64,000 nucleotides of DNA from Escherichia coli (GTDB taxonomy: Bacteria; Pseudomonadota; Gammaproteobacteria; Enterobacterales; Enterobacteriaceae). The notes beneath the pieces were generated by a model. That model saw nothing but the letters and a program-made list of their open reading frames with translations. It was not told where the DNA came from and ran no database searches. Shown in pieces: positions 5,527 to 42,415 of the stretch. Positions within the stretch are counted from its first letter, which is position 1, and each line of letters begins with the position of its first letter. The stretch lies in NCBI RefSeq assembly GCF_002854065.1, contig NZ_CP024147.1; one strand, written 5' to 3'. A program made the translations under genes and the position numbers.

Positions 5527-7340
<1,814 letters not shown>

Positions 7341-27614: not shown

Positions 27615-28781
27615 ATGAACTTACATGAATATCAGGCAAAACAACTTTTTGCCCGCTATGGCTTACCAGCACCGGTGGGTTATGCCTGTACTACTCCGCG
27701 CGAAGCAGAAGAAGCCGCTTCAAAAATCGGTGCCGGTCCGTGGGTAGTGAAATGTCAGGTTCACGCTGGTGGCCGCGGTAAAGCGGGCGGTGTGAAAGTT
27801 GTAAACAGTAAAGAAGACATCCGTGCTTTTGCAGAAAACTGGCTGGGCAAGCGTCTGGTAACGTATCAAACAGATGCCAATGGCCAACCGGTTAACCAGA
27901 TTCTGGTTGAAGCGGCGACCGATATCGCTAAAGAGCTGTATCTCGGTGCCGTTGTTGACCGTAGTTCACGTCGCGTGGTCTTTATGGCCTCCACCGAAGG
28001 CGGCGTGGAAATCGAAAAAGTGGCGGAAGAAACTCCGCACCTGATCCATAAAGTTGCGCTTGATCCGCTGACTGGCCCGATGCCGTATCAAGGACGCGAG
28101 CTGGCGTTCAAACTGGGTCTGGAAGGTAAACTGGTTCAGCAGTTCACCAAAATCTTCATGGGCCTGGCGACCATTTTCCTGGAGCGCGACCTGGCGCTGA
28201 TCGAAATCAACCCGCTGGTTATTACCAAACAGGGCGATCTGGTCTGCCTCGACGGCAAACTGGGCGCTGATGGCAACGCACTGTTCCGCCAGCCTGATCT
28301 GCGCGAAATGCGCGACCAGTCGCAGGAAGATCCGCGTGAAGCACAGGCTGCACAGTGGGAACTGAACTACGTTGCGCTGGACGGTAACATCGGTTGTATG
28401 GTTAACGGCGCAGGTCTGGCGATGGGTACGATGGACATCGTTAAACTGCACGGCGGAGAACCGGCTAACTTCCTGGACGTTGGCGGCGGCGCAACCAAAG
28501 AACGTGTAACCGAAGCGTTCAAAATCATCCTCTCTGACGACAAAGTGAAAGCCGTTCTGGTTAACATCTTCGGCGGTATCGTTCGTTGCGATCTGATCGC
28601 TGACGGTATCATCGGCGCGGTAGCGGAAGTGGGTGTTAACGTACCGGTCGTGGTACGTCTGGAAGGTAACAACGCCGAACTCGGCGCGAAGAAACTGGCT
28701 GACAGCGGCCTGAATATTATTGCAGCAAAAGGTCTGACGGATGCAGCTCAGCAGGTTGTTGCCGCAGTGGAGGGGAAATAA
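27615..28781 (+). CDS. sucC: Succinyl-CoA synthetase beta subunit
   Basis: 388-aa ORF; N-terminus [18 protein letters not shown] (ATP-grasp). Confidence 0.97.
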
Positions 28782-29650
28782 TGTCCATTTTAATTGATAA
28801 AAACACCAAGGTTATCTGCCAGGGCTTTACCGGTAGCCAGGGGACTTTCCACTCTGAACAGGCCATTGCATACGGCACCAAAATGGTTGGTGGCGTAACT
28901 CCAGGTAAAGGCGGTACTACCCACCTCGGCCTGCCGGTGTTCAACACCGTGCGTGAAGCTGTTGCTGCTACTGGCGCTACCGCTTCTGTTATCTACGTAC
29001 CAGCACCGTTCTGCAAAGACTCCATTCTGGAAGCCATCGACGCAGGCATCAAACTGATTATCACCATCACTGAAGGCATCCCGACGCTGGATATGCTGAC
29101 CGTGAAAGTGAAGCTGGATGAAGCAGGCGTTCGTATGATCGGCCCGAACTGCCCAGGCGTTATCACTCCGGGTGAATGCAAAATCGGTATCCAGCCTGGT
29201 CACATTCACAAACCGGGTAAAGTGGGTATCGTTTCCCGTTCCGGTACACTGACCTATGAAGCGGTTAAACAGACCACGGATTACGGTTTCGGTCAGTCGA
29301 CCTGTGTCGGTATCGGCGGTGACCCGATCCCTGGCTCTAACTTTATCGACATTCTCGAAATGTTCGAAAAAGATCCGCAGACCGAAGCGATCGTGATGAT
29401 CGGTGAGATCGGCGGTAGCGCTGAAGAAGAAGCAGCTGCGTACATCAAAGAGCACGTTACCAAGCCAGTTGTGGGTTACATCGCTGGTGTGACTGCGCCG
29501 AAAGGCAAACGTATGGGCCACGCGGGTGCCATCATTGCCGGTGGGAAAGGGACTGCGGATGAGAAATTCGCTGCTCTGGAAGCCGCAGGCGTGAAAACCG
29601 TTCGCAGCCTGGCGGATATCGGTGAAGCACTGAAAACTGTTCTGAAATAA
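28781..29650 (+). CDS. sucD: Succinyl-CoA synthetase alpha subunit
   Basis: 289-aa ORF; N-terminus [45 protein letters not shown]. Confidence 0.97.
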
Positions 29651-29750
29651 ATATCTGTAATAAGAAATAGCCCTCGCCGCTTCCCTCTACAGGAATGGCG
29701 AAGGGCTGTCGGTTTCGACATGGTTGGCCATCGTATGATGGCCTTTTTTA
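29651..29750 (+). ncRNA. sdhX: Candidate SdhX (RybD)-type 3'UTR-derived sRNA ending at the sucD terminator
   Basis: Sequence shows two hairpins after the sucD stop, the second (ggccatcgtatgatggcc + T-run) a rho-independent terminator; SdhX is known to derive from the sucD 3'UTR in E. coli; the sRNA sequence itself is not verified from memory. Confidence 0.45.
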
Positions 29751-30316
29751 TGCCTTAAACGGTTAACCACGGTCGAAATCTGACTGCAGGCTTGACTGCA
29801 TGACCACAGCCACTGTGGATTGCCGCAACCGACCGCAAGCCACGAATAAGAACGACGGCGAATTTCGAATCGTTACCTGATGCACTGGCTTCCCAGCGTT
29901 TGACCGTAGCGTTAAGTAAATCAACAAAAGCGATGTTCACCGCTTTTCGTCAAGTCGTGCCATTTGTCAGCCAGGATCGGGTCTTTACCCCGGATATTGC
30001 AGCATCGCAAAAATTCTTAGAGGGATATGCTATAAATCAAAAATAAAATCTTTGTTGATTGTTTATCATAATATCCACAGATATGATAAATGATATCAAT
30101 TTAATAATTTTCACTTAATGTGATTCCGGATAATTCGAAAGGCGCTGTGCTTTTCGGATTATTATTATCTGATTAAGATATTTGTCACGCCAGGCTTACT
30201 GGTTTATAAATGTCAATCATGATTCTTATAAATTATTTATTGCTGCTTTGGTTACCATTACTTCGTAATAAGTAATGTATTTTTGATTGTTTAAACTATT
30301 TTTAAGGGACGGCATT

Positions 30317-30418
30317 ATGCGAGGGAAAATACCTAAAACGGAACTGCTGGTGACTTTTGAGGTCGTCGCACGTCATGAAAGTTATACCAGAGCGGCAGAG
30401 GAGTTAGCGTTAACCCGG
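30317..30418 (+). pseudogene. LysR-type transcriptional regulator, N-terminal 34 codons only, truncated by IS1
   Basis: MRGKIPKTELLVTFEVVARHESYTRAAEELALTR resembles the LysR winged-HTH start; the reading frame runs into the IS1 terminus and stops on IS1 sequence. Confidence 0.6.
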
Positions 30419-30431
30419 TAATGACTCCAAC

Positions 30432-30935
30432 TTATTGATAGTGTTTTATGTTCAGATAATGCCCGATGACTTTGTCATGCAGCTCCACCGATTTTGAGAA
30501 CGACAGCGACTTCCGTCCCAGCCGTGCCAGGTGCTGCCTCAGATTCAGGTTATGCCGCTCAATTCGCTGCGTATATCGCTTGCTGATTACGTGCAGCTTT
30601 CCCTTCAGGCGGGATTCATACAGCGGCCAGCCATCCGTCATCCATATCACCACGTCAAAGGGTGACAGCAGGCTCATAAGACGCCCCAGCGTCGCCATAG
30701 TGCGTTCACCGAATACGTGCGCAACAACCGTCTTCCGGAGCCTGTCATACGCGTAAAACAGCCAGCGCTGGCGCGATTTAGCCCCGACGTATCCCCACTG
30801 TTCGTCCATTTCCGCGCAGACGATGACGTCACTGCCCGGCTGTATGCGCGAGGTTACCGACTGCGGCCTGAGTTTTTTAAATGGCGGAAAATCGTGTTGA
30901 GGCCAACGCCCATAATGCGGGCGGTTGCCCGGCAT
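30432..30935 (-). CDS. insB: IS1 InsB (C-terminal transposase domain, expressed as InsAB' by -1 frameshift)
   Basis: 167-aa ORF …[47 protein letters not shown]… matches IS1 InsB. Confidence 0.95.
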
Positions 30936-31129
30936 CCAACGCCATTCATGGCCATATCAATGATTTTCTGGTGCGTACCGGGTTGAGAAGCGGTGTAAGT
31001 GAACTGCAGTTGCCATGTTTTACGGCAGTGAGAGCAGAGATAGCGCTGATGTCCGGCAGTGCTTTTGCCGTTACGCACCACCCCGTCAGTAGCTGAACAG
31101 GAGGGACAGCTGATAGAAACAGAAGCCAC
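30854..31129 (-). CDS. insA: IS1 InsA (transposition inhibitor / N-terminal part of the InsAB' transposase)
   Basis: 91-aa [46 protein letters not shown]… matches IS1 InsA. Confidence 0.95.
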
Positions 31130-31184
31130 TGGAGCACCTCAAAAACACCATCATACACTAAATCAGTAAGTTGGCAGCATCACC

Positions 31185-31655
31185 CACCACGATTTGCAAA
31201 ATTTCATTGTGCGCCATGGCATCGACAATGCTGGTGGGGAAAGCATGCGAAATAAATACTTTTAGCGTAAAGGGTTCTGCCGCGACCACTCCGGTGGTTT
31301 CGGCACCGTGTGCAACAAAATTAATTCCTGTACCTGGCATGAAGAAATTTACCGTTATCAAGCCTAAGGCAATTGACAGCAATGAGGCGCAAATAAATAA
31401 AAAGAGTGTTTTAGAAAAAATACGACCAAGGGCTTTGGCATCGCCCATTTTAGCAATACCTACCACCAGGGTAGAGACCACTAACGGAGCGATAATCATT
31501 TTTATCAGTCGTAAGAAAATCGTCGTGAATATCGATATTTCTTGCGCATAGAGTTTTGCGGTTTCCGGTGAAGCAGTGTTATTGAGCACTACGCCGATAA
31601 TCATTCCAAGTACCAGCGCCAAAAGAATCATCGTGGTTAAACTTATTTTCTTCAT
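31185..31655 (-). pseudogene. Glutamate/dicarboxylate:cation symporter (DAACS family, GltP/DctA-like), N-terminal ~157 codons, 3'-truncated by IS1
   Basis: IFLRLIKMIIAPLVVSTLVVGIAKMGDAKALGRIFSKTL… aligns with the GltP N-terminal region; GGAGG RBS before ATG at 31655; the ORF continues into IS1, where it terminates. Confidence 0.8.
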
Positions 31656-31815
31656 TTTTTCCTCCATCAGGTGCACGGCGATAAATCAGAATCAGGAGAA
31701 GTAGATGCCTGAATAGAGATTCAGGCATCTACCTGCTATTACAACCTTACAAATAGCTGAAGTGTTGAACTGCAATAAGTGACGGGATGTCAGTTGGCTA
31801 AAAGTATTCGGATTT

Positions 31816-32133
31816 TTACAAATCGAAACTCATATTTAATAAAGGTGCATGTTGCTGTGCACCATAGACATCATTGTCACCTACATTCCCGGAGATAATA
31901 TCTCGTGGCATGACGATTTTTACTGCGTTAGAAGGATCAAACCAGACAATACGATGAATAAAGTCAGGTTCAACATGATATAAGCGCGCAATCAGTTCTG
32001 GGGTTAATTGCCCTGATGATTTAACTCGCTCATAGTTTTCTTTCGTTTTAAATAAAATATCTAAAACCAGTTCGTAAGGTCCGGCATTTTTCGAACGAAT
32101 GACTTGCGCCAGTGAGACAATTGACTGTTTCAT
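31816..32133 (-). CDS. DUF4387-family protein (105 aa), function unknown
   Basis: Small ORF translationally coupled (ATGA overlap) to the upstream DUF1446 gene; family assignment is from memory of the AtuA-partner family. Confidence 0.6.
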   Translation of the reverse strand: MKQSIVSLAQVIRSKNAGPYELVLDILFKTKENYERVKSSGQLTPELIARLYHVEPDFIHRIVWFDPSNAVKIVMPRDIISGNVGDNDVYGAQQHAPLLNMSFDL

Positions 32134-33500
32134 GCCTGAACTCCTTCTGGCGTCACCTGTTCAATATGGAAATCAAAACGCAGAGCGTCGTTGGCTTCAA
32201 TCAGGTGATATATGGAAAATTCGTATACCGGCCCGCCCTGGATATCAGAAGGGGAGAACGGGAACGCCAGGTTGCCTGCGGTAGCGATGCGGTTTTCATA
32301 GCCGTAGTGCAGCATGGTAGAGCGCACCAGCGAGCAAACGCTATTGGCAATTTCCTGGGTCGGTGCAACTACATCAAGGACAATCCCCAGCTCATGCCCG
32401 GCAGTTTGCATCGGTTCATGGTCGCCCATCACCCCGTTTTTACCGTACAGGTGGAAAATGATGCGAATGCTGTCATCGTCTAACGACAGGTTACGCGAAA
32501 CGCTGGTTTTGACTTCATCGATGATTTTATCGATCCCGGCGATCATGATCGGGTCGCGCGTTCCGGCGATGGTCAGACAGCGGAAGCCCACCCGTCGCGC
32601 ACCTTCCAGTTTCAGGGCATACGGCGTTTCTTCATGCTTAGAACCGCTGACGTACACTTCGCCGTCATTGACTGCTTTAAATGTGCAGCCTTTCAGGTTC
32701 AACACGCCGCCAGGTCCTGGCAGGAAGTAGGGATCGGATTTCTCATACAGTGTGTGTGCAGCTGCTGACGTTTCGGTAAATTTACGCTTCGGATTAAATG
32801 TCTTCAGCGTAAAGCCGTTGTCATCAATGATGCCCATCGCACAGTCAGAGCCTGAGCCGGGCGTTGCGGCGATTGCTGCGCACTCAAGGATTTTCCCACA
32901 ATGCAGCGCCAGACCTTCATCAAAGCCTTGCATGATCGGTAGCGCAGCAAAGCAGGCCGGGTCGTAAGCGCGCCCACCCAGCACCACTTGCGCGCCTTCT
33001 TTCAGCGCCCGCTGGAAGGGTTCGATGCCCATTTGCGCGACGATATACGTACTTTCGTCAATCGCGTCGTGGGTTAACGGCGGGACAAAATCCAGCGCCG
33101 TGATTTTGCCGTTATCCAGCGCCTGGTGGACGATGGCTTTGTCAACGTCTGCCGGGATCAACGCCATCGAGAACGAGAGGTGCTCTTCCTGGGCAATCTC
33201 ATGAATTATTTCTCGGCACCACTCCAGGTGTGGTGCGGCACCAGAACCGCCAGCCGTTCCGATCACCACCGGTATATTATTTTGCACGCCTGCGGTGATC
33301 ATATAGCGCAGATCGCGCTTGACCCCTGCGCGATCGGTAAACGGTTTGCCTGCCCCGAGGTAGTGGGGGCCTGGATCGGAAGAGCCTGCATCAACGGCGA
33401 TCAGATCGGGCGATTCTGCCATCGCTTTACGGAAGCTCTCTTCCGGGAATCCATACCCGAGGATTGCCGTTGGCGATAAGACTTTAAAAGAACGAGCCAT
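32130..33500 (-). CDS. DUF1446 / AtuA-like protein (456 aa), function unknown
   Basis: ORF immediately downstream of the methylaspartase gene (3-nt gap); AtuA-like assignment from sequence recollection, not a search. Confidence 0.6.
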   Translation of the reverse strand: MARSFKVLSPTAILGYGFPEESFRKAMAESPDLIAVDAGSSDPGPHYLGAGKPFTDRAGVKRDLRYMITAGVQNNIPVVIGTAGGSGAAPHLEWCREIIHEIAQEEHLSFSMALIPADVDKAIVHQALDNGKITALDFVPPLTHDAIDESTYIVAQMGIEPFQRALKEGAQVVLGGRAYDPACFAALPIMQGFDEGLALHCGKILECAAIAATPGSGSDCAMGIIDDNGFTLKTFNPKRKFTETSAAAHTLYEKSDPYFLPGPGGVLNLKGCTFKAVNDGEVYVSGSKHEETPYALKLEGARRVGFRCLTIAGTRDPIMIAGIDKIIDEVKTSVSRNLSLDDDSIRIIFHLYGKNGVMGDHEPMQTAGHELGIVLDVVAPTQEIANSVCSLVRSTMLHYGYENRIATAGNLAFPFSPSDIQGGPVYEFSIYHLIEANDALRFDFHIEQVTPEGVQA

Positions 33501-33503
33501 TTG

Positions 33504-34745
33504 TTAATCCTTAGCCTGCAACAGCGCGATAGTACGATTCATTTCGTTGAAGACGATATCGAGGCCTTCGTCAAAACCCATCCCTGGTTTTACCAGCATA
33601 CGCATAGGGCGAGCGGCAAGGGCGACGTGGACACAGGTGCGGGCACTAACATCAGTTTCATTGCAGGTGCCGCCCTGGTACGCTTCCATGCTGTGGCTGT
33701 TGCAGTAAAGAACCGCATCGACGATGTTGTGAATACTTCCAAGATCCGGGGTTTTGATTTGCACCATGTGACAACTGGCGGCATCAGTGAAATCAACAAT
33801 ATCCTGGTAGGTGTTACACCATTCATCGGCCACAATTTTCACGCCGGAACCGAGGCGCGTCAGCTCTTTGGTAATCGCGGTCAGCAGGCGAATTTGGTCG
33901 GGCTTGTTACCGGCATCGACCGGCCCTTCAATGTAGAGCGGCAGGCCTTGCGCTTCTTTTTCCAGGCTGGCGATGTATTGCGCACAGCGAAGCGGATCCA
34001 TATCGAAGATCAGACCGATAGTGCCGTATACATCGATGTGCAGGGTAGGGTGGTAGCGTGCGCTGGTGCGCTTGCTCAGAATGCGATCCGACAGCCAGCG
34101 GACATATTCGCGCAGTTTTTCACCTTTAAAGCCCAGCTTCTCTTCGACGTTATTAATCAGCGCATGGGGCAGCACGTCGATGCCCTTAAGGATCATCTTA
34201 TCGACGGCGATATATCGATCGTCGCCGCTCTGGCCAAATAATGGAATGGATTCCGCCACGTGTGGCAACTGCCATTCATCACAGACCACTTCAGTTTTCA
34301 GACGGCCGGTTGCCAGCGCAGTAGCATCAAGCAGCGCCTGTGATAATCCGTAGCGCACGGCGGTATGCAGCAAGTTGCCGTCAATACGCAGTTTGTCGAA
34401 GAAACGGGCATTCGGCAGGAAAGCATCCACATCGCGGCCTACCAGTAATGGCTTGATATGGTCGTTGAGGAACGGAATAAAGTGCTCTGCGAGGAACAGT
34501 GGATCGCGACCACCTGCCCCGGAATACTGTACGGCAGCACAGTCACCTACAGCGACCGCGCCGTTTTCCAGAATCAACTGTACCGATACGCACTCCCCGG
34601 CCTGACGAACGGCGTTAAACCCCTGTGTTACCGGCTCCCCGGTATAAAAAAAGCCGTCATGACCCGCTCCGTTTTTTATCGCCTGCTGGTCATCGAAATA
34701 GAATGAGGAGTAGCCAGCGGTGAACAGAGCCTGTTTTATTTTCAT
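33504..34745 (-). CDS. mal: 3-methylaspartate ammonia-lyase (methylaspartase, enolase superfamily)
   Basis: 413-aa ORF; strong similarity to clostridial methylaspartase as I remember it (…FYFDDQ.AIK.GAGHDGF.YTG…CAAVQYSGAGGRDPLFLA…HMVQIKTPDLG…). Confidence 0.9.
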   Translation of the reverse strand: MKIKQALFTAGYSSFYFDDQQAIKNGAGHDGFFYTGEPVTQGFNAVRQAGECVSVQLILENGAVAVGDCAAVQYSGAGGRDPLFLAEHFIPFLNDHIKPLLVGRDVDAFLPNARFFDKLRIDGNLLHTAVRYGLSQALLDATALATGRLKTEVVCDEWQLPHVAESIPLFGQSGDDRYIAVDKMILKGIDVLPHALINNVEEKLGFKGEKLREYVRWLSDRILSKRTSARYHPTLHIDVYGTIGLIFDMDPLRCAQYIASLEKEAQGLPLYIEGPVDAGNKPDQIRLLTAITKELTRLGSGVKIVADEWCNTYQDIVDFTDAASCHMVQIKTPDLGSIHNIVDAVLYCNSHSMEAYQGGTCNETDVSARTCVHVALAARPMRMLVKPGMGFDEGLDIVFNEMNRTIALLQAKD

Positions 34746-36190
34746 TATGGTCTTTCTATTAATTTACTGTGGGATACAGCATTGATGTCATCTACAACCA
34801 TCTGGAATGTCGGTTGGCGTCCTTCAAAGCGTGCGCGTTCCGCGACGTAATCGTGGTGGAGGTCGAGAATATCTTTTGGCAATGGAACGGCTCCGGCTTC
34901 CAGTACGCGTATCGCGCCGGTGTTGTCACGGACCGGAAGAATATTGCCCGCGTTGCAGGCGGCTGGCGCAAACGGCACATCCAGTACGCCCGCTTCAAAT
35001 GCCAGCACCGTACCGCGCGCAATATCACCATTACCCAGTTCGAACACTTTATTCAGTACCGCGCGAACCTCGCTCTTAATCAGTTCAATTTCCAGTTCAA
35101 CCGCAGGGCACGGCGGGAATTTCTGCTCATTGACCATGTTGAGCATCTGGCGGGAGGCTTTCAGCCCCTGAATGTTGGCAGCGGCAGTCGGGATACCCCA
35201 GGCTTCGTGCGGACTTTTGGTGATGACTTTGGTGGCACCAGACATCCCCGCGACGGCTGCGCCCCAGGAGATAATAGCGAACGCTTTCGATTCGTCTTCC
35301 GGAAAGCCGCCCATCCACTGGTGAAACACGGTACTCAATTCATAGTCGGTATAGCCATAGCTCTGAAAGTATTCGTGTGCAAGTTCACGCAGAGACTGGA
35401 TCGCCGCAACATCCTGCGTCAGGCTGCCGACCTGGCCATAACCAACGGTGATAGATTTCACACCCTGTTCCAGTGCCAGCAAGCCTTCGATTATCGCGAT
35501 AGAGTGCGAGATAAACGGCGGGATCAGCGTACCCGTTAGTGGGCCAAACGGTTCGCGGTTGATGCGGATCCCGTGTTCTTCATACATCCCCATTAAACGG
35601 TCGCAGTACTGCCAGTCGCGGATCGATTTTTCCAGCGTTACGCGTTTGGCATACGGAATGTTGTAGGAAATGCCACCGCCTTCATAACTGGTAAAGCCGC
35701 TGGCCATTGAGATTTCAGCCAGCAGACGCGCATCTGGCGTGCCGTGGCGGATCTGTAGCGGTTTTTGCAGGGTTTCGGTGAGGCGACGGCAAGCTGCGAC
35801 ACCATGGTTAACTACCGGTAAACCGTTCAGTTTAGAGGTTCCGGCTTCGATGGATTTTTTAATCCCTACAGCCGCTTCTTCGTACCGATTCAGACGGGTA
35901 TATGCATCGATGGTGCTTGGCAGCAGATCGCACTCTTCTTGTAGTGTTTTCAGCAGTTCGATGTGTTCGTCCATCAGCGCCACACCTGCGCGCGGTTGGC
36001 TAAGGGTTTTACCTTCCTTGTCTGCTTTCAGCAGCGCAAGAGAGAAGCGTTTATGCTCAGGGATGGTTTGTTGGTATTTAACGCCATCTTCAAAGATTTC
36101 AACATCCTTGCCGGTTTCCCAGGTTTTCAGTACCTGTTGCCGCTCGGTCATGAATTCGTCATGGGTTAATTTCTTATTTCGAAGTTCCAT
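34745..36190 (-). CDS. glmE: Glutamate mutase E subunit (methylaspartate mutase epsilon chain)
   Basis: 481-aa ORF, 1-nt stop/start overlap with mal; size and position match GlmE/MutE. Confidence 0.85.
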   Translation of the reverse strand: MELRNKKLTHDEFMTERQQVLKTWETGKDVEIFEDGVKYQQTIPEHKRFSLALLKADKEGKTLSQPRAGVALMDEHIELLKTLQEECDLLPSTIDAYTRLNRYEEAAVGIKKSIEAGTSKLNGLPVVNHGVAACRRLTETLQKPLQIRHGTPDARLLAEISMASGFTSYEGGGISYNIPYAKRVTLEKSIRDWQYCDRLMGMYEEHGIRINREPFGPLTGTLIPPFISHSIAIIEGLLALEQGVKSITVGYGQVGSLTQDVAAIQSLRELAHEYFQSYGYTDYELSTVFHQWMGGFPEDESKAFAIISWGAAVAGMSGATKVITKSPHEAWGIPTAAANIQGLKASRQMLNMVNEQKFPPCPAVELEIELIKSEVRAVLNKVFELGNGDIARGTVLAFEAGVLDVPFAPAACNAGNILPVRDNTGAIRVLEAGAVPLPKDILDLHHDYVAERARFEGRQPTFQMVVDDINAVSHSKLIERP

Positions 36191-36208
36191 TGATTGCAGC
36201 CTTAATTG

Positions 36209-37597
36209 TTATAGGGTTAAGCATTGAATACTGGTGCGCGCGGCGGCCAGCGGATCGACTCTGGCGACGTTTGCCAGCAGTGGTAATAGCCCCCGGGAAT
36301 CGCGGTAATATTCAAATTCGGTCGGTAAGAGAATGCGTTTACCGTCGTCGTTTAACTCGCGGTATTTCAACCAGTGATGCATATCGAACTGACTGGCACG
36401 CGAGAGCCATCCGCCGGATCCGACGACTTTACGCACGGTTGTCAGGTCACGTCCCATCTGTAAATCGACATTGCCGACGCAGGTGCAGACCTCTTTTTTG
36501 GTGCCCGCATGTCTTTCGGTGGCATAACCCACACACAGTCCGGCCAGGACGGTATCGAAATATTTCTCTTCTGCATTTGCGGGTAAGTAGTCGGGATGAG
36601 CGACTAGATGACGGAGGTAATGATAAAAAGCGTCCAGCTGTGCGGGTTGCTGAGCAAAATTCACATTGACTAACTCTTTCGCACTTTCACCAACCACCAC
36701 TGCCGAGACGCGCATTCCCAGATCGCCTTCCACCGTCCGTTTTACGAAGGGTTCCGGTACGCCGTGTAAAACGGTGTCGGGCGAGAGCGTGTTGGCACAG
36801 GCGGAATAAACATCGGTGGTTGCGCCGCCCATGTCGATCAGCATGAACTCTTTCCAGCTGTGATCGACGTTACTGATTGCCTTGACCAGTTCAAAGACCG
36901 TCCATGGTGTCGGCATTGGTTCTTCGCCTGTTTTATCAACAATGACATCCAGCCCTTTCCCTTTAACGATGCGTTTAAGGAATATGTCGCAAATAGCCTG
37001 GCGTGCGGCTAAAGGGTTCGGATGGTCAAGATCGGGCAGAACATTGTCGACGATGGTCAGGTCTTTATGCCCGAGGATCTCCTGCACCTCGTCCTGAATA
37101 TCCCGGTTTCCGGCATAAATAATGGCGCAGTCGAGTTTGGATTCTGCCAGCACACGGGCGTTATTCAGTCCGTAGCTTTCTTCTCCGCCGTCGGTGCCGC
37201 CGGTGAACAAGAGAATATCGGGCTGCGTTTCTTCCAGTGCCTGGATATCACGGCGGTTCAGCTTGTAGGCGTAATATTGCGCAATTTTAGCACCCGCAGA
37301 GTGAGCGGTTACTTTCGCGGTTTCCAGGGTGATAGAAGGCACCAATCCCATTGCGGCAACCGCCAGCCCACCTTTGGCAGAGGAGGAATACTTCAATGCA
37401 ACCTCACCGCTGTTTAACAGGGGGAGGGCATTATCTACGTTTAACACCTGGTTCAGGCTGGAGAAAAACCCCTTCGCCAGATGATGGGTGGTGGTTGGGG
37501 TCAGTACGTGGTTAACCAACGTTAACGCGTCCCCCTCCCGGGTGAAGAGGGCTGCTTTGGTCCACGTCGATCCAATATCGACAGAGACGATTTGCAT
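36209..37597 (-). CDS. glmL: Glutamate mutase-associated protein GlmL/MutL (ASKHA-fold ATPase-like)
   Basis: 462-aa ORF between glmS and glmE, as in clostridial glutamate mutase operons. Confidence 0.8.
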   Translation of the reverse strand: MQIVSVDIGSTWTKAALFTREGDALTLVNHVLTPTTTHHLAKGFFSSLNQVLNVDNALPLLNSGEVALKYSSSAKGGLAVAAMGLVPSITLETAKVTAHSAGAKIAQYYAYKLNRRDIQALEETQPDILLFTGGTDGGEESYGLNNARVLAESKLDCAIIYAGNRDIQDEVQEILGHKDLTIVDNVLPDLDHPNPLAARQAICDIFLKRIVKGKGLDVIVDKTGEEPMPTPWTVFELVKAISNVDHSWKEFMLIDMGGATTDVYSACANTLSPDTVLHGVPEPFVKRTVEGDLGMRVSAVVVGESAKELVNVNFAQQPAQLDAFYHYLRHLVAHPDYLPANAEEKYFDTVLAGLCVGYATERHAGTKKEVCTCVGNVDLQMGRDLTTVRKVVGSGGWLSRASQFDMHHWLKYRELNDDGKRILLPTEFEYYRDSRGLLPLLANVARVDPLAAARTSIQCLTL

Positions 37598-38046
37598 CAG
37601 ATAGCCTCTTCAAGAATACGAGTATCAACGTCATGACGTTGGTTGATATCGTGGGCCATCAGCTGACAAACATCTTCTAAGTCATGACTTGGGGCAAAGA
37701 CGCGATCAAATCCCATCTCTTTGAATTTGGTTTCCACGTCAGCGAAGTCATGTTTTCCGACCACCAGGTTACCGCCCACATAGAGCAGGATGTCCCCCAG
37801 TCCACGCTCGATGCAGCGTTCGCGCATGCCCAGACAGTCGATATCGCCATGCCCATAGATAGAGGAGACGACAATCGCGTCAGCGCCAGTTTCAATGGCC
37901 GCATCAATATATTCGTCCTGGCTGACCATTACGCCCAGATTAATGACTCTGAAGTCGTGGTTGCTAAAAACGCGGTCCAGAACTTTATTGCCTACTGCAT
38001 GGCAGTCCGCGCCAATAACGCCAATCACAAGTGTTGCTTTCTTCAT
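37597..38046 (-). CDS. glmS: Glutamate mutase S subunit (B12-binding sigma chain)
   Basis: About 149 aa from [24 protein letters not shown]…; cobalamin-binding DxHxxG motif (ADCHAVG); TGATG overlap with glmL. Confidence 0.9.
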
Positions 38047-38592
38047 GGGTAATCCTTTGTAAGACAGAGAGTAAAATAAGTTACACACGTCGTATTTATG
38101 GCCGTTCATAACGGCACAGGTTTAATATCACAGGAGTGTCTTTATCTGACCGTAATGTTGCAATTGATCTATTTTCAAAATGTCTTTCGGGAAATGATTG
38201 TTTAAAGTGTGTTTTTAAATTCCCATGTTAATTCAGTATGTTATGTCAACTAATGTCATGAATGTTAAATTTTTAAAATTAACTTGATTTAATGTATTGA
38301 GATAATTGTGATCTACTTCTAATTTGCATTTTAGTGATATGGGTTTAGCCATGAGTAAATGCATTTCATAAAATTTAAGTCGAATTTCACTGCAATTCAT
38401 CTCTGCTTAATGTAAAAATAATGTTGAAAATAACAAATGGTTAATGATTCATGCGAATTATGACGTTAGTTAGCTCTTTTGATTTTTCGTAAAAAAGAGA
38501 GGTACATGAAGGTGCTACCAGTATGAGTAACGTTAATCAAAGGTTTTATTACGTCTGGCAATAACGCAGGCCATTTTCGCGACTGGGTGGAT

Positions 38593-39015
38593 TTAATCAG
38601 TATAATCCTCATACAATATTTCAGGATTAACTGAACCGTTAACCGGGTTTTGGTGTTGAAATTTAGAAATGGCGGAGTCAATCAATGAAGACAGTATCGA
38701 AAAAATAACTGTGTCAGAACTAATTTCAATTAATCCTTCTCGTTGTTGACCAAAAAAGATATTTATCTTGATTTCATTTGTACTACGGCAATCAATATGT
38801 AGTAATTTTTGATCGCTGAGATTTTCTGTTTCATAAATGTTTTTGGCGATAGTCGGATGTATTGATGCCAGACATCTGCTCAGATAAGCCAGATCCTTTA
38901 GGGAACACCCCGCTGAGTAGAGGATGTCAGAGAATTTTTGTGTGTCAACTGTTGTCTCTGAAGCGTATGTTGCATTGACAGGAAGGGTGTTGAAAGAGAT
39001 TTGAGATGGGATCAT
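38593..39015 (-). CDS. Hypothetical acidic protein (140 aa) in AT-rich segment
   Basis: ORF in a strongly AT-rich region; no recognisable motif. Confidence 0.5.
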   Translation of the reverse strand: MIPSQISFNTLPVNATYASETTVDTQKFSDILYSAGCSLKDLAYLSRCLASIHPTIAKNIYETENLSDQKLLHIDCRSTNEIKINIFFGQQREGLIEISSDTVIFSILSSLIDSAISKFQHQNPVNGSVNPEILYEDYTD

Positions 39016-39096
39016 TATTTAAATCTTTCCGTGAGTAATAAAAATTAATCCCCAGGCATTGTTTAACAATATTTGCCATAGGGGATATATAGAAAA

Positions 39097-40041
39097 TTAA
39101 AGTATTTTATTGGCTTCGGTTAACTGATCTATAACCAGTGCCAGATTGGTAAACATTTTGAAAAAGCGATACTGGCTCGGAATATCTCTTTCAAAGACGA
39201 AACATTCAAGGTCATTGTTTGAAAAATAAAGGACTAGTGTTGCTGATTCGTCAGGGAAAACATGGAAATGTATCTGGTTACCAGAAGGAGGATAGTCCAG
39301 AAGAAGGGTATCTTTGCCCGTCACATACCTGTTGTTGTCGTGGACGCTACGCTCACACTTCATCAGAGGTGTCAGGATACTCATGTATTCATCTGATGTT
39401 AATTTATTAAAATCATCATTCATTTTAAAGAAACGATAAAGTAACAGTACATCCTCTTGCGTAACCGGTTCGTTTGTTTTTAGAGGGAAATAAGCGGGAA
39501 CCAGAAGATGAGGTTCTAATCTATTTTGTTGAGCGCTATAACTGAATTTGAACATAAATTCCGGATCGCTCATCAATTGAGCGACATAATTATGCCTGGC
39601 TTCGAAAATTTTAATTTTTATCAGGTTAAATAAGTCTGTTTCGTCATCCTGTATTAAAAGACATTGGCCATAGCAGCCAGGCTTTTTTTCATTATAAGCA
39701 GAAACGGTTATTCTGTCAGAGGTGTCAACGTTATATTCAAAAGCCAGATAGTGACCTTCTTCATCGCGATTTGTTTCCAGGTTATTTAAATTCATCACAT
39801 GAAGTGTTTGCAATGCTGATTCAATGAGCTGTTGACTCTCTGAGGTAAATGTTTCGCGCTGCGTTGTATAAAGTGTATCAATTCCAACGACTATCCGATG
39901 TGGGTCAAGGATGGCGGCAATCATCTTTATTACCTGCACAGTCACGGGTGATGTCATTGATTCTTTATCTGTTTTTAGAGAATCATTAGATGGCCAACCT
40001 GAGAAGCGATTGACAGCCGAACCGATATTATCAGGACTCAT
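39097..40041 (-). CDS. Hypothetical protein (314 aa) in AT-rich segment
   Basis: ORF with Ser/Asn/Pro-rich N-terminus, no transmembrane segments, no recognisable catalytic motif; co-directional with the 140-aa ORF. Confidence 0.55.
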   Translation of the reverse strand: MSPDNIGSAVNRFSGWPSNDSLKTDKESMTSPVTVQVIKMIAAILDPHRIVVGIDTLYTTQRETFTSESQQLIESALQTLHVMNLNNLETNRDEEGHYLAFEYNVDTSDRITVSAYNEKKPGCYGQCLLIQDDETDLFNLIKIKIFEARHNYVAQLMSDPEFMFKFSYSAQQNRLEPHLLVPAYFPLKTNEPVTQEDVLLLYRFFKMNDDFNKLTSDEYMSILTPLMKCERSVHDNNRYVTGKDTLLLDYPPSGNQIHFHVFPDESATLVLYFSNNDLECFVFERDIPSQYRFFKMFTNLALVIDQLTEANKIL

Positions 40042-40547
40042 AGCAGCAACCTCATTGTAATCAAGCGAGGCGCTGAGCGTACTCGGCTATAGAAAAACTA
40101 ACTTGCAAAAATCGCTCATTTTTCATTTATCAGGCGAAAGTGGTCTCTGTACACTCAGAAACAATCACTCCCGCTAAGTCATACCTGTTTCATCGATACA
40201 TTTAAGTGATTATTACTAATGAAACAATAACATAACGGGCTTACGGTCGGTGCTCATAAAGGCAACAATCAATTAACTTTGATAAAAATATGTTATGTAA
40301 AATAGCAACAAATTGGCTACTCTAATCAATTGGTATTATAAAAAGTGGATAAGGCGGTTCTGTTAAATAAAATACTGGTTTTTTATCTATACCTTTTCAT
40401 TGTAATAATTGTGTTGCATAAATATTTCACAATAAATTAACAATAAAATCACCAATGATCTATGGTTTATACATAATTAACATATTTGGTTGGTTTTGAT
40501 ATAAATCAATTTTTAATTCTTGAAAAAAATCTGCAAAACACGATAAA

Positions 40548-40561
40548 TTGTCGTAGATCAA
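40548..40561. promoter_or_regulatory. Putative FNR/CRP-family site in the cydA upstream region
   Basis: ttgtcgtagatcaa matches TTGAT-N4-ATCAA with one mismatch; cydAB is known to be FNR/ArcA-regulated. Confidence 0.3.
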
Positions 40562-40846
40562 ATTGATGAGATCGTGACAATTTCGCTATAAATTGATCAC
40601 TGTCGAAAAATGCAAATTTGCTCAATAAAAACCTGTTTATTGTAAGGATTTTGCGGCGTAATATAATTACGGGATCAATTTGGTTTATTCATTAACATAT
40701 TTGTAACTTTTTTATCATTGTCTTTTCCTCTTTTGATGAAATGGCAACGATAGGGGCGAGCAAATAATTTTGTATTGGGGCATGCGTGTGACCCTTTCTA
40801 ACGGGGTTCACTCTCGGAGTCTTCATGCGATGAGCAAGGAGTCATG

Positions 40847-42415
40847 ATGTTAGATATAGTCGAACTGTCGCGCTTACAGTTTGCCTTGACCGCGATGTAC
40901 CACTTCCTTTTTGTGCCACTGACGCTCGGTATGGCGTTCCTGCTGGCCATTATGGAAACGGTCTACGTCCTTTCCGGCAAACAGATTTATAAAGATATGA
41001 CCAAGTTCTGGGGCAAGTTGTTTGGTATCAACTTCGCTCTGGGTGTGGCTACCGGTCTGACCATGGAGTTCCAGTTCGGGACTAACTGGTCTTACTATTC
41101 CCACTATGTAGGGGATATCTTCGGTGCGCCGCTGGCAATCGAAGGTCTGATGGCCTTCTTCCTCGAATCCACCTTTGTAGGTCTGTTCTTCTTCGGTTGG
41201 GATCGTCTGGGTAAAGTTCAGCATATGTGTGTCACCTGGCTGGTGGCGCTCGGTTCAAACCTGTCCGCGCTGTGGATTCTGGTTGCAAACGGCTGGATGC
41301 AAAACCCAATCGCGTCCGATTTCAACTTTGAAACTATGCGTATGGAGATGGTGAGCTTCTCCGAGCTGGTGCTTAACCCGGTTGCTCAGGTGAAATTCGT
41401 TCACACTGTAGCGTCTGGTTATGTGACTGGCGCGATGTTCATCCTCGGTATCAGCGCATGGTATATGCTGAAAGGTCGTGACTTCGCCTTCGCTAAACGC
41501 TCCTTTGCTATCGCTGCCAGCTTCGGTATGGCTGCCGTTCTGTCTGTTATTGTTCTGGGTGATGAATCCGGCTACGAAATGGGCGACGTGCAGAAAACCA
41601 AACTGGCTGCTATTGAAGCTGAGTGGGAAACGCAACCTGCGCCTGCTGCCTTTACTCTGTTCGGCATTCCTGATCAGGAAGAGGAGACGAACAAATTTGC
41701 GATCCAGATCCCTTACGCGCTGGGCATCATTGCAACGCGTTCCGTGGATACTCCAGTTATCGGCCTGAAAGAACTGATGGTGCAGCATGAAGAACGCATT
41801 CGTAACGGGATGAAGGCGTACTCTCTGCTCGAGCAACTGCGTTCTGGTTCTACCGACCAGGCGGTTCGTGACCAGTTCAACAGCATGAAGAAAGACCTCG
41901 GTTACGGTCTGCTGCTGAAACGCTATACGCCAAACGTGGCTGATGCGACTGAAGCGCAGATTCAACAGGCAACCAAAGACTCCATTCCGCGTGTAGCGCC
42001 GCTGTACTTCGCGTTCCGTATCATGGTGGCGTGTGGCTTCCTGCTGCTGGCAATCATCGCGCTCTCTTTCTGGAGTGTCATCCGCAACCGCATTGGCGAG
42101 AAAAAATGGCTCCTGCGCGCCGCGCTGTACGGTATTCCGCTGCCGTGGATTGCTGTAGAAGCGGGCTGGTTCGTGGCTGAATATGGCCGCCAACCGTGGG
42201 CTATCGGTGAAGTGCTGCCGACAGCTGTGGCGAACTCGTCACTGACCGCAGGCGATCTCATCTTCTCAATGGTGCTGATTTGCGGCCTGTATACCCTGTT
42301 CCTGGTGGCAGAATTGTTCTTAATGTTCAAGTTTGCACGCCTCGGCCCAAGCAGCCTGAAAACCGGTCGCTATCACTTTGAGCAGTCTTCCACGACTACT
42401 CAGCCGGCACGCTAA
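40847..42415 (+). CDS. cydA: Cytochrome bd-I ubiquinol oxidase subunit I
   Basis: 522 aa from [28 protein letters not shown]. Confidence 0.97.

Follow-up and report, generated by a model that had tools for sequence, protein, structure and literature searches.

Cytochrome bd-I serves the respiration of Escherichia coli when oxygen is low and is important for growth in the gut, and only for K-12 has its regulation been elucidated. The cydAB promoters of that strain have a literature of their own (Cotter et al. 1997, Govantes et al. 2000, Lynch and Lin 1996). According to the K-12 papers, including Myers et al. 2013 and Park et al. 2013, ArcA activates cydAB by counteracting H-NS and FNR represses it; five promoters have been described, and H-NS binds the K-12 spacer. 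Under the ChIP peak at K-12 cydA, Myers et al. 2013 give two FNR motifs 52 bp apart, TTGATATTTATCAA at 770333 and TTGTTCTCGATCAA at 770385, and place the former at -53.5 relative to the promoter. Park et al. 2013 define three ArcA ChIP-seq regions in K-12, i.e. cydA1 at about -581, cydA2 at -409 to -378 (770260-770311) and cydA3 at -143.

We analysed the DNA upstream of cydA in a 64 kb stretch of E. coli sequence (hereafter the window, to which all coordinates refer unless stated otherwise). According to the annotation, cydA for cytochrome bd-I subunit I occupies 40847-42415 on the plus strand, and its protein is identical to that of K-12 (WP_000884361.1); RefSeq places the start at the ATG at 40847, and the ORF list also permits 40844. 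The interval upstream of it, 40042-40846, comprises 805 bp of non-coding DNA with 33.0% GC and is flanked by genes with ~50-55% GC. It holds no ORF of 60 aa or more in the ORF list, and its left neighbour is a 314 aa gene on the minus strand (39097-40041), taken from the ORF list and annotated as hypothetical. The locus thus has the long non-coding spacer (>600 bp) directly 5' of cydA that is typical of a K-12-type cydAB control region. We conclude that the part shared with E. coli genomes lacking an adjacent two-gene module, 666 bp at 40181-40846 on the plus strand, is in all likelihood a complete oxygen-responsive control region and leader of cydABX-ybgE, orthologous to that of K-12, present in a deeply diverged allele (W1) and presumably working by the K-12 mechanism. 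Its FNR and ArcA sites exist, score well and keep their K-12 distances, and their positions are conserved across Enterobacteriaceae; binding, transcription starts and regulation in W1 are presumed by transfer from K-12.

An earlier note, made from the sequence of this DNA, had pointed out the long AT-rich non-coding stretch before cydA, a site at 40548-40561 resembling the FNR consensus, and the existence of several cydAB promoters under ArcA and FNR. The first is borne out by the length and composition given above, and the third agrees with the published K-12 work. The flagged site, TTGTCGTAGATCAA (FNR-2), matches the consensus at 8/10 positions, with a perfect right half ATCAA and 3/5 matches in the left half, and overlaps the predicted start of P1. 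It has the inverted repeat and the 4-nt spacing of an FNR box and keeps the outer TTG-N8-CAA. Taken alone, as a match with two mismatches, it is close to chance: the window contains 46 FNR matches with at most 2 mismatches, compared with 31.9 ± 5.5 in shuffled sequences. It becomes significant because of its context, namely a perfect box 52 bp away and alignment with a recognised K-12 FNR site. The perfect box, TTGATATAAATCAA (FNR-1, 40496-40509), is the sole TTGAT-N4-ATCAA without mismatch that the consensus scan found within the 64 kb window; it lies exactly 52 bp upstream of FNR-2 and at -53.5 relative to the predicted P1. Both this box and the ArcA boxes described below emerged from the scans for FNR and ArcA sites and had not figured in the earlier note. 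The two boxes (0 mismatches at 40496-40509, 2 at 40548-40561) bracket the predicted P1, and a second FNR site reportedly lies at -1.5 of P1. In the alignment with K-12, FNR-1 pairs with TTGATATTTATCAA and FNR-2 with TTGTTCTCGATCAA (770385); since the flagged site aligns with this K-12 FNR motif, it lies in conserved rather than inserted DNA.

Two further elements follow FNR-2. Immediately downstream, the K-12 stretch GCTGAAAGGCGGTAAT (about 6093-6110 of the K-12 locus L002), which we take to be the Cra (FruR) site of Ramseier et al. 1996, reads GATGAGATCGTGACAA in W1 (40562-40580). The stretch is variable among genera, therefore Cra control may be allele-specific. At 40593-40606, 45 bp after FNR-2, a third FNR-like element, TTGATCACTGTCGA, is found inside the block GCTATAAATTGATC....TCGAAAA. 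In a 12-sequence alignment the block around it is conserved in most of the genera examined, and we found no published assignment for this element in the cydAB regulation literature consulted.

For ArcA, Park et al. 2013 published 128 boxes, and 115 of these went into our position weight matrix (PWM). The 805 bp interval yields 7 hits of at least 12 bits, compared with 0.53 expected, and none of 200 shuffles reaches that number. The hits fall into three regions. The distal one, ArcA-1 (40262-40296), consists of two overlapping boxes, AAGTTAATTGATTGTTGC on the minus strand (14.0 bits) and TTGATAAAAATATGTTAT on the plus strand (17.3 bits), at -576 and -559 from the ATG. ArcA-2 (40400-40483, -438 to -372) is a cluster of four boxes scoring 13.9, 20.5, 14.5 and 16.2 bits. 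The proximal ArcA-3 (40692-40709, minus strand, -146) is the single box AAGTTACAAATATGTTAA with 20.5 bits, which corresponds to the K-12 cydA3 box aggttgcaaacatgttaa. Thus PWM hits of 14-20.5 bits represent cydA1, cydA2 and cydA3 at K-12-like distances from the ATG, where ArcA-1 is the putative equivalent of cydA1 by its position and PWM score.

The consensus scan predicts promoter P1 on the plus strand at 40520-40549 (TTGAAA, 18-nt spacer, TAAATT) with a start at ~40556, a position that we inferred from the published -53.5 location of FNR-1; its -10 element TAAATTG is invariant across 12 genera. A second promoter-like site with 10/12 matches was found by the same scan downstream on the plus strand (TTGTAA, 16-nt spacer, TATAAT; 40640-40667) and is a candidate for one of P2-P4. 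It lies within a 39-nt block that four E. coli sequences, drawn from both alleles, share without a difference and that is almost unchanged across 12 genera. By number, promoter consensus matches are not enriched in the interval, with 5 found and 4.6 expected from shuffles. If the K-12 mechanism is transferred to these sites, H-NS would silence the AT-rich control region under aerobic conditions, and its GC content of 31-33% is consistent with H-NS binding. As oxygen falls, phosphorylated ArcA would bind at 40262-40296, 40400-40483 and 40692-40709 and relieve the silencing, upon which P1 and the downstream promoters would fire. Under full anaerobiosis, FNR dimers on the boxes at -53.5 (40496-40509) and -1.5 (40548-40561) would repress P1, so that expression would peak in microaerobic conditions.

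To compare these sites across genera, we collected outgroups by a protein-seeded scan with one genome per species, giving at least 80 loci. The matches listed include 14 Enterobacteriaceae genomes and no other Escherichia or Salmonella species; together with three E. coli sequences, the 14 form a set of 17. The layout of FNR-1, FNR-2 at +52 and ArcA sites recurs in the 14 other Enterobacteriaceae genomes among the matches listed. FNR-1 is present with 0-1 mismatch at -334 to -348 in 17/17 sequences (14 genomes among the matches listed and the three E. coli). FNR-2 follows 52 bp after FNR-1 in 16/17 and 51 bp after it in one, always with the right half GATCAA (among the matches listed); its left half has the TTGTC form in 7/14 of the outgroups among the matches listed. 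Likewise, a plus-strand ArcA-1 box of at least 13 bits occurs at -557 to -614 in 15/17 sequences (14 among the matches listed plus three E. coli); at the same offsets, 13 bits are reached in only 1/23 of the more distant Enterobacterales among the matches listed, which served as the negative control. ArcA-2 is found at -400 to -415 in 14/17 of the Enterobacteriaceae sequences (among the matches listed), and its core ACA..TTAACA..TCAC is invariant across 12 genera. An ArcA-3 box of at least 13 bits lies at -141 to -151 in 16/17 (among the matches listed), with none in Enterobacter sp. Bisph1. In the 12-sequence alignment, the invariant blocks coincide with the FNR and ArcA sites, the third FNR-like element and the 39-nt block.

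It has to be considered whether the whole interval could instead be horizontally acquired, H-NS-silenced filler from the adjacent island, in which the FNR-like match arose by chance. Its 33% GC, its position next to an AT-rich orphan module and the near-chance level of two-mismatch FNR matches in the window would all fit such an origin. However, both TTGTCGTAGATCAA and the perfect box upstream of it align with FNR sites known from K-12, 17/17 Enterobacteriaceae sequences (14 among the matches listed and 3 E. coli) share the layout, and the module-specific part extends only from 40042 to ~40180. Moreover, island-free outgroup control regions are equally AT-rich (33-38% GC among the matches listed). 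Because of this similar composition, we regard the AT-richness of 40181-40846 as ancestral and not as a mark of acquisition. For the interval as a whole we therefore consider this origin extremely improbable; for 40181-40846 it is ruled out by the alignments, and it holds only for 40042-40180.

The left boundary of the control region can be placed by distribution and by alignment. The segment 40042-40205 is present in 1138 of 5426 complete E. coli genomes, namely those with the two orphan genes and the methylaspartate-mutase island. Similarity to module-free (island-free) E. coli, in which the gene order is sucD, a TPR gene and cydA, begins at 40181-40206 and runs at ~90% to the ATG (89.8% over 40181-40846 for locus L003). 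The cydA gene of Citrobacter werkmanii, Citrobacter sp. FP75 and Pseudescherichia vulneris is directly preceded by glmS and glmL, with neither orphan gene in between; in the Citrobacter alignment, 38047-38325 matches the glmS side and 40429-40846 (80%) the cydA side. From the module-linked distribution and these two alignments it follows that the acquired piece spans ~38326-40180 and the control region 40181-40846. By these comparisons, the leftmost 140-165 bp (40042 to ~40180-40205) is assigned to the inserted two-gene module and not to the control region; the spacer 40042-40180, which occurs in the same genomes as the module and has no similarity to K-12, is presumably the 5' region of the 314-aa gene. 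The earlier note had expected a boundary between conserved cydA control DNA and an acquired AT-rich part within the interval, and such a boundary does exist at ~40181-40206. The acquired part is confined to the left end; 40181-40846, about 80% of the interval, belongs to the control region instead. The control DNA, in turn, is conserved in that it is orthologous to K-12; it is a deeply diverged allele and not K-12-like in sequence.

The orphan AT-rich module itself (38326-40180) consists of two minus-strand genes, encoding 140 aa (38593-39015) and 314 aa (39097-40041), and searches of both proteins with Pfam and PADLOC gave no match. It is inserted between glmS and the control region of cydA; Citrobacter and P. 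vulneris, which share the adjacency of glmS and cydA, do not have it. The K-12 counterpart of the control region begins at about -640, after a terminator-like hairpin 3' of mngB (L002, 5714-5733), and is of about equal length. More broadly, the space between sucD and cydA is a cassette hotspot: in E. coli it holds mngRAB (59%), the TPR gene (~20%) or the methylaspartate (glutamate fermentation) island (~21%). mngB, the TPR gene and the methylaspartate island adjoin cydA in other Enterobacteriaceae genera as well, and sucD is the direct neighbour of cydA in many Enterobacterales. In the window, the K-12-like spacer on the sucD side ends at 29753, and the variable cassette extends over ~29754-40470. 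The left part of the methylaspartate island (29650-32130) appears truncated and carries IS1-like sequence, and 28500-34800 was matched colinearly over at least 80% in only 2/5426 genomes. Among its large ORFs, the 64 kb window shows no evident counterparts of the fumarate hydratase and symporter genes of strain CUWW06.

The most strongly conserved part of the region is the end of the cydA leader (40773-40846, plus strand). It comprises two hairpins, H1 (40788-40811) and H2 (40819-40843), the Shine-Dalgarno sequence AAGGAG (40836-40841) and a mini-ORF, ATGCGATGA (40825-40833). From -70 to -1, both E. coli alleles, Citrobacter and Superficieibacter are 100% identical, although cydA itself is only 94% identical to Citrobacter and 88% to Superficieibacter. 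Folding with RNAalifold and pair counts revealed changes on both sides at all 7 pairs of H1 across genera. H2, which pairs with the Shine-Dalgarno sequence, has at most one-sided variation in 18 Enterobacterales, with no pair changed on both sides. The conservation of the leader together with H2 suggests translational control of cydA. The mini-ORF was rejected as a conserved feature of the leader: Hafnia, Serratia, Yersinia and others have lost it and kept the SD-pairing hairpin.

Such conservation might also be expected if the interval hid a small gene missed by the annotation or an RNA of a known family, and a minus-strand 44-aa ORF (40692-40826), the 2-codon mini-ORF (40825-40833) and the conserved hairpins of the leader could be read in this way. 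We consider it very unlikely. An Rfam search of 39900-41000 at a permissive threshold detected no family, and its best matches were at chance level (E-values of 0.36 and 0.74, both to eukaryotic miRNA models). The 44-aa ORF covers the least conserved stretch (40711-40760), the mini-ORF is gone outside Enterobacteriaceae, and the hairpins suit a structured mRNA leader rather than a separate gene.

Although the architecture is that of K-12, the sequence of the W1 allele differs strongly from it. Homology to the K-12 region does not extend over the full length, which affects the identity of the allele and not its architecture. K-12 can be aligned from ~40422-40470 to the ATG (76.9% identity over 40422-40846), and no similarity to K-12 was detected from -640 to -425 (local alignment compared with shuffles, z = -0.7); a recognisable homology of the distal halves was accordingly dropped. 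From -385 to -71, W1 and K-12 are 73% identical, and over the same span either allele is 70-76% identical to Citrobacter and 71-73% to Enterobacter cloacae. The W-type sequence is marginally nearer to Citrobacter (75-76%) than to the K-12-type sequence (73%), and no near-identical donor was found among the matches listed. The last difference between the two types is at 40772; from 40773 on, they are 98.5% identical over 6.1 kb, and within E. coli the first 600 nt of cydA reach 99.5% identity (94% to Citrobacter). The change from 73% in the control region to 99.5% in the coding region gives a sharp breakpoint, as expected of a switched regulatory region.

Both types are common. Among 5426 complete E. 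coli genomes, 3178 (~59%) have the K-12-type and 2236 (~41%) the W-type distal module, and the latter split about evenly into the island-linked W1 and the TPR-linked W2. W1 is the allele of the window, O157:H7 being identical over the distal module, and W2 is found in ST131 strains; the two are 97% identical proximally and ~80% distally. Strain HH97 (L004, 5001-5638) is a natural recombinant with a W2-type distal and a K-12-type proximal half, whose breakpoint at about -380 falls in the conserved ArcA box ACAT(G/A)ATTAACATA. The predicted strengths of the sites differ as well. ArcA-1 scores 17.3 bits in W1 and 20.2 bits in K-12, ArcA-2 20.5 and 13.0 bits, and ArcA-3 20.5 and 15.3 bits, respectively; the downstream -10 element is TATAAT in W1, and K-12 gives no equivalent scan hit. 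FNR-2 contains 2 mismatches in W1 compared with 1 in K-12 and 1 in W2; with this extra mismatch, repression at P1 could therefore be weaker in W1. From these scores, a quantitative regulatory difference between the W1 and K-12 alleles is possible. A literature search of incomplete coverage found no published cydA promoter dimorphism or switched cydA intergenic region, and an exact CydX look-up returned only the three E. coli haplotypes.

These data raise the question of whether the W allele entered by recombination from a different lineage and gives island-bearing and B2-type strains an oxygen-response curve of bd-I that differs from that of K-12. In such an event, the homology arm on the right would have been provided by the ultra-conserved leader and cydA, and the control region would have been replaced together with the neighbouring cassette. 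The two types are as far apart over -385 to -71 (73%) as other genera are, compared with 99.5% in cydA; identity jumps to 98.5% from 40773; and each allele is linked to its own cassette (mngRAB, TPR gene or methylaspartate island), all of which also occur beside cydA in other genera. The recombinant HH97, the intermediate allele frequencies (3178 and 2236 of 5426) and the different strengths of the ArcA sites, FNR-2 and the downstream -10 element point in the same direction. However, all recognised sites are kept at the same spacing, which points to conserved rather than changed function; the comparison of E. coli with other genera among the matches listed shows neither an import nor its direction; and unconstrained positions may be saturated in both alleles. 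We therefore view an import with altered response as possible, yet doubtful. Similarly, it is only with caution that we put forward two ancient bd-I control haplotypes in E. coli (three if the sub-types are counted), cassette-linked at ~59:41, that might tune microaerobic bd-I expression differently.

For studies of bd-I regulation, the consequence is that ~41% of complete E. coli genomes, O157:H7 and ST131 included, have the K-12 site layout and little of the K-12 sequence. K-12 site coordinates and strengths should thus not be transferred blindly to W-type strains. At the same time, a layout kept in two diverged alleles and in 14 other Enterobacteriaceae genomes (among the matches listed) amounts to a natural phylogenetic footprint of the essential elements. 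If the alleles were indeed tuned differently, O157:H7, other island-bearing strains and ST131/B2 strains would respond to oxygen unlike the K-12 model behind all cydAB regulation studies.

Taken together, the closest known system is the K-12 cydAB region, i.e. the mngB-cydA spacer with P1-P5. Like W1, it has cydA downstream with identical CydA, ~640-665 bp of control DNA, two FNR boxes 52 bp apart around P1 (predicted in W1) and three ArcA regions at equal distances from the ATG; it is AT-rich, as expected of an H-NS target, and the last 74 nt of the leader are identical. Unlike a copy of W1, it matches at 73% over -385 to -71 and cannot be aligned upstream of about -425. Its upstream neighbours are mngRAB, a terminator and a REP element, whereas W1 has the orphan module and the methylaspartate island. 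With respect to the sites, W1 has one more mismatch in FNR-2, higher-scoring ArcA-2 and ArcA-3, a lower-scoring ArcA-1 and a perfect TATAAT downstream, and GCTGAAAGGCGGTAAT is not conserved. Other Enterobacteriaceae (Citrobacter, Kluyvera, Enterobacter, Pluralibacter, Superficieibacter and others) have the same FNR-1/FNR-2/ArcA layout and the same conserved blocks. Citrobacter and Pseudescherichia vulneris even resemble the W1 locus in having methylaspartate mutase genes immediately upstream of cydA; neither they nor the other Enterobacteriaceae have the two orphan genes, and in their distal halves no sequence shared with W1 is detectable. The control region is thus of a known kind, in an allele that has drawn little notice, and its divergence within the species is the modestly surprising part. 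In horizontal regulatory switching, a promoter region is reportedly replaced between conserved genes. A related term, 'switched intergenic regions', was used by Thorpe et al. 2018 (Piggy). As in regulatory switching (Oren et al. 2014; Thorpe et al. 2018), the cydA locus combines near-identical coding DNA (99.5%) with a diverged or unalignable upstream region, a sharp breakpoint and versions that segregate within the species. Unlike a switch to a new regulator, however, the cydA versions are orthologous in architecture with all sites kept, and the change looks like an exchange of equivalents.
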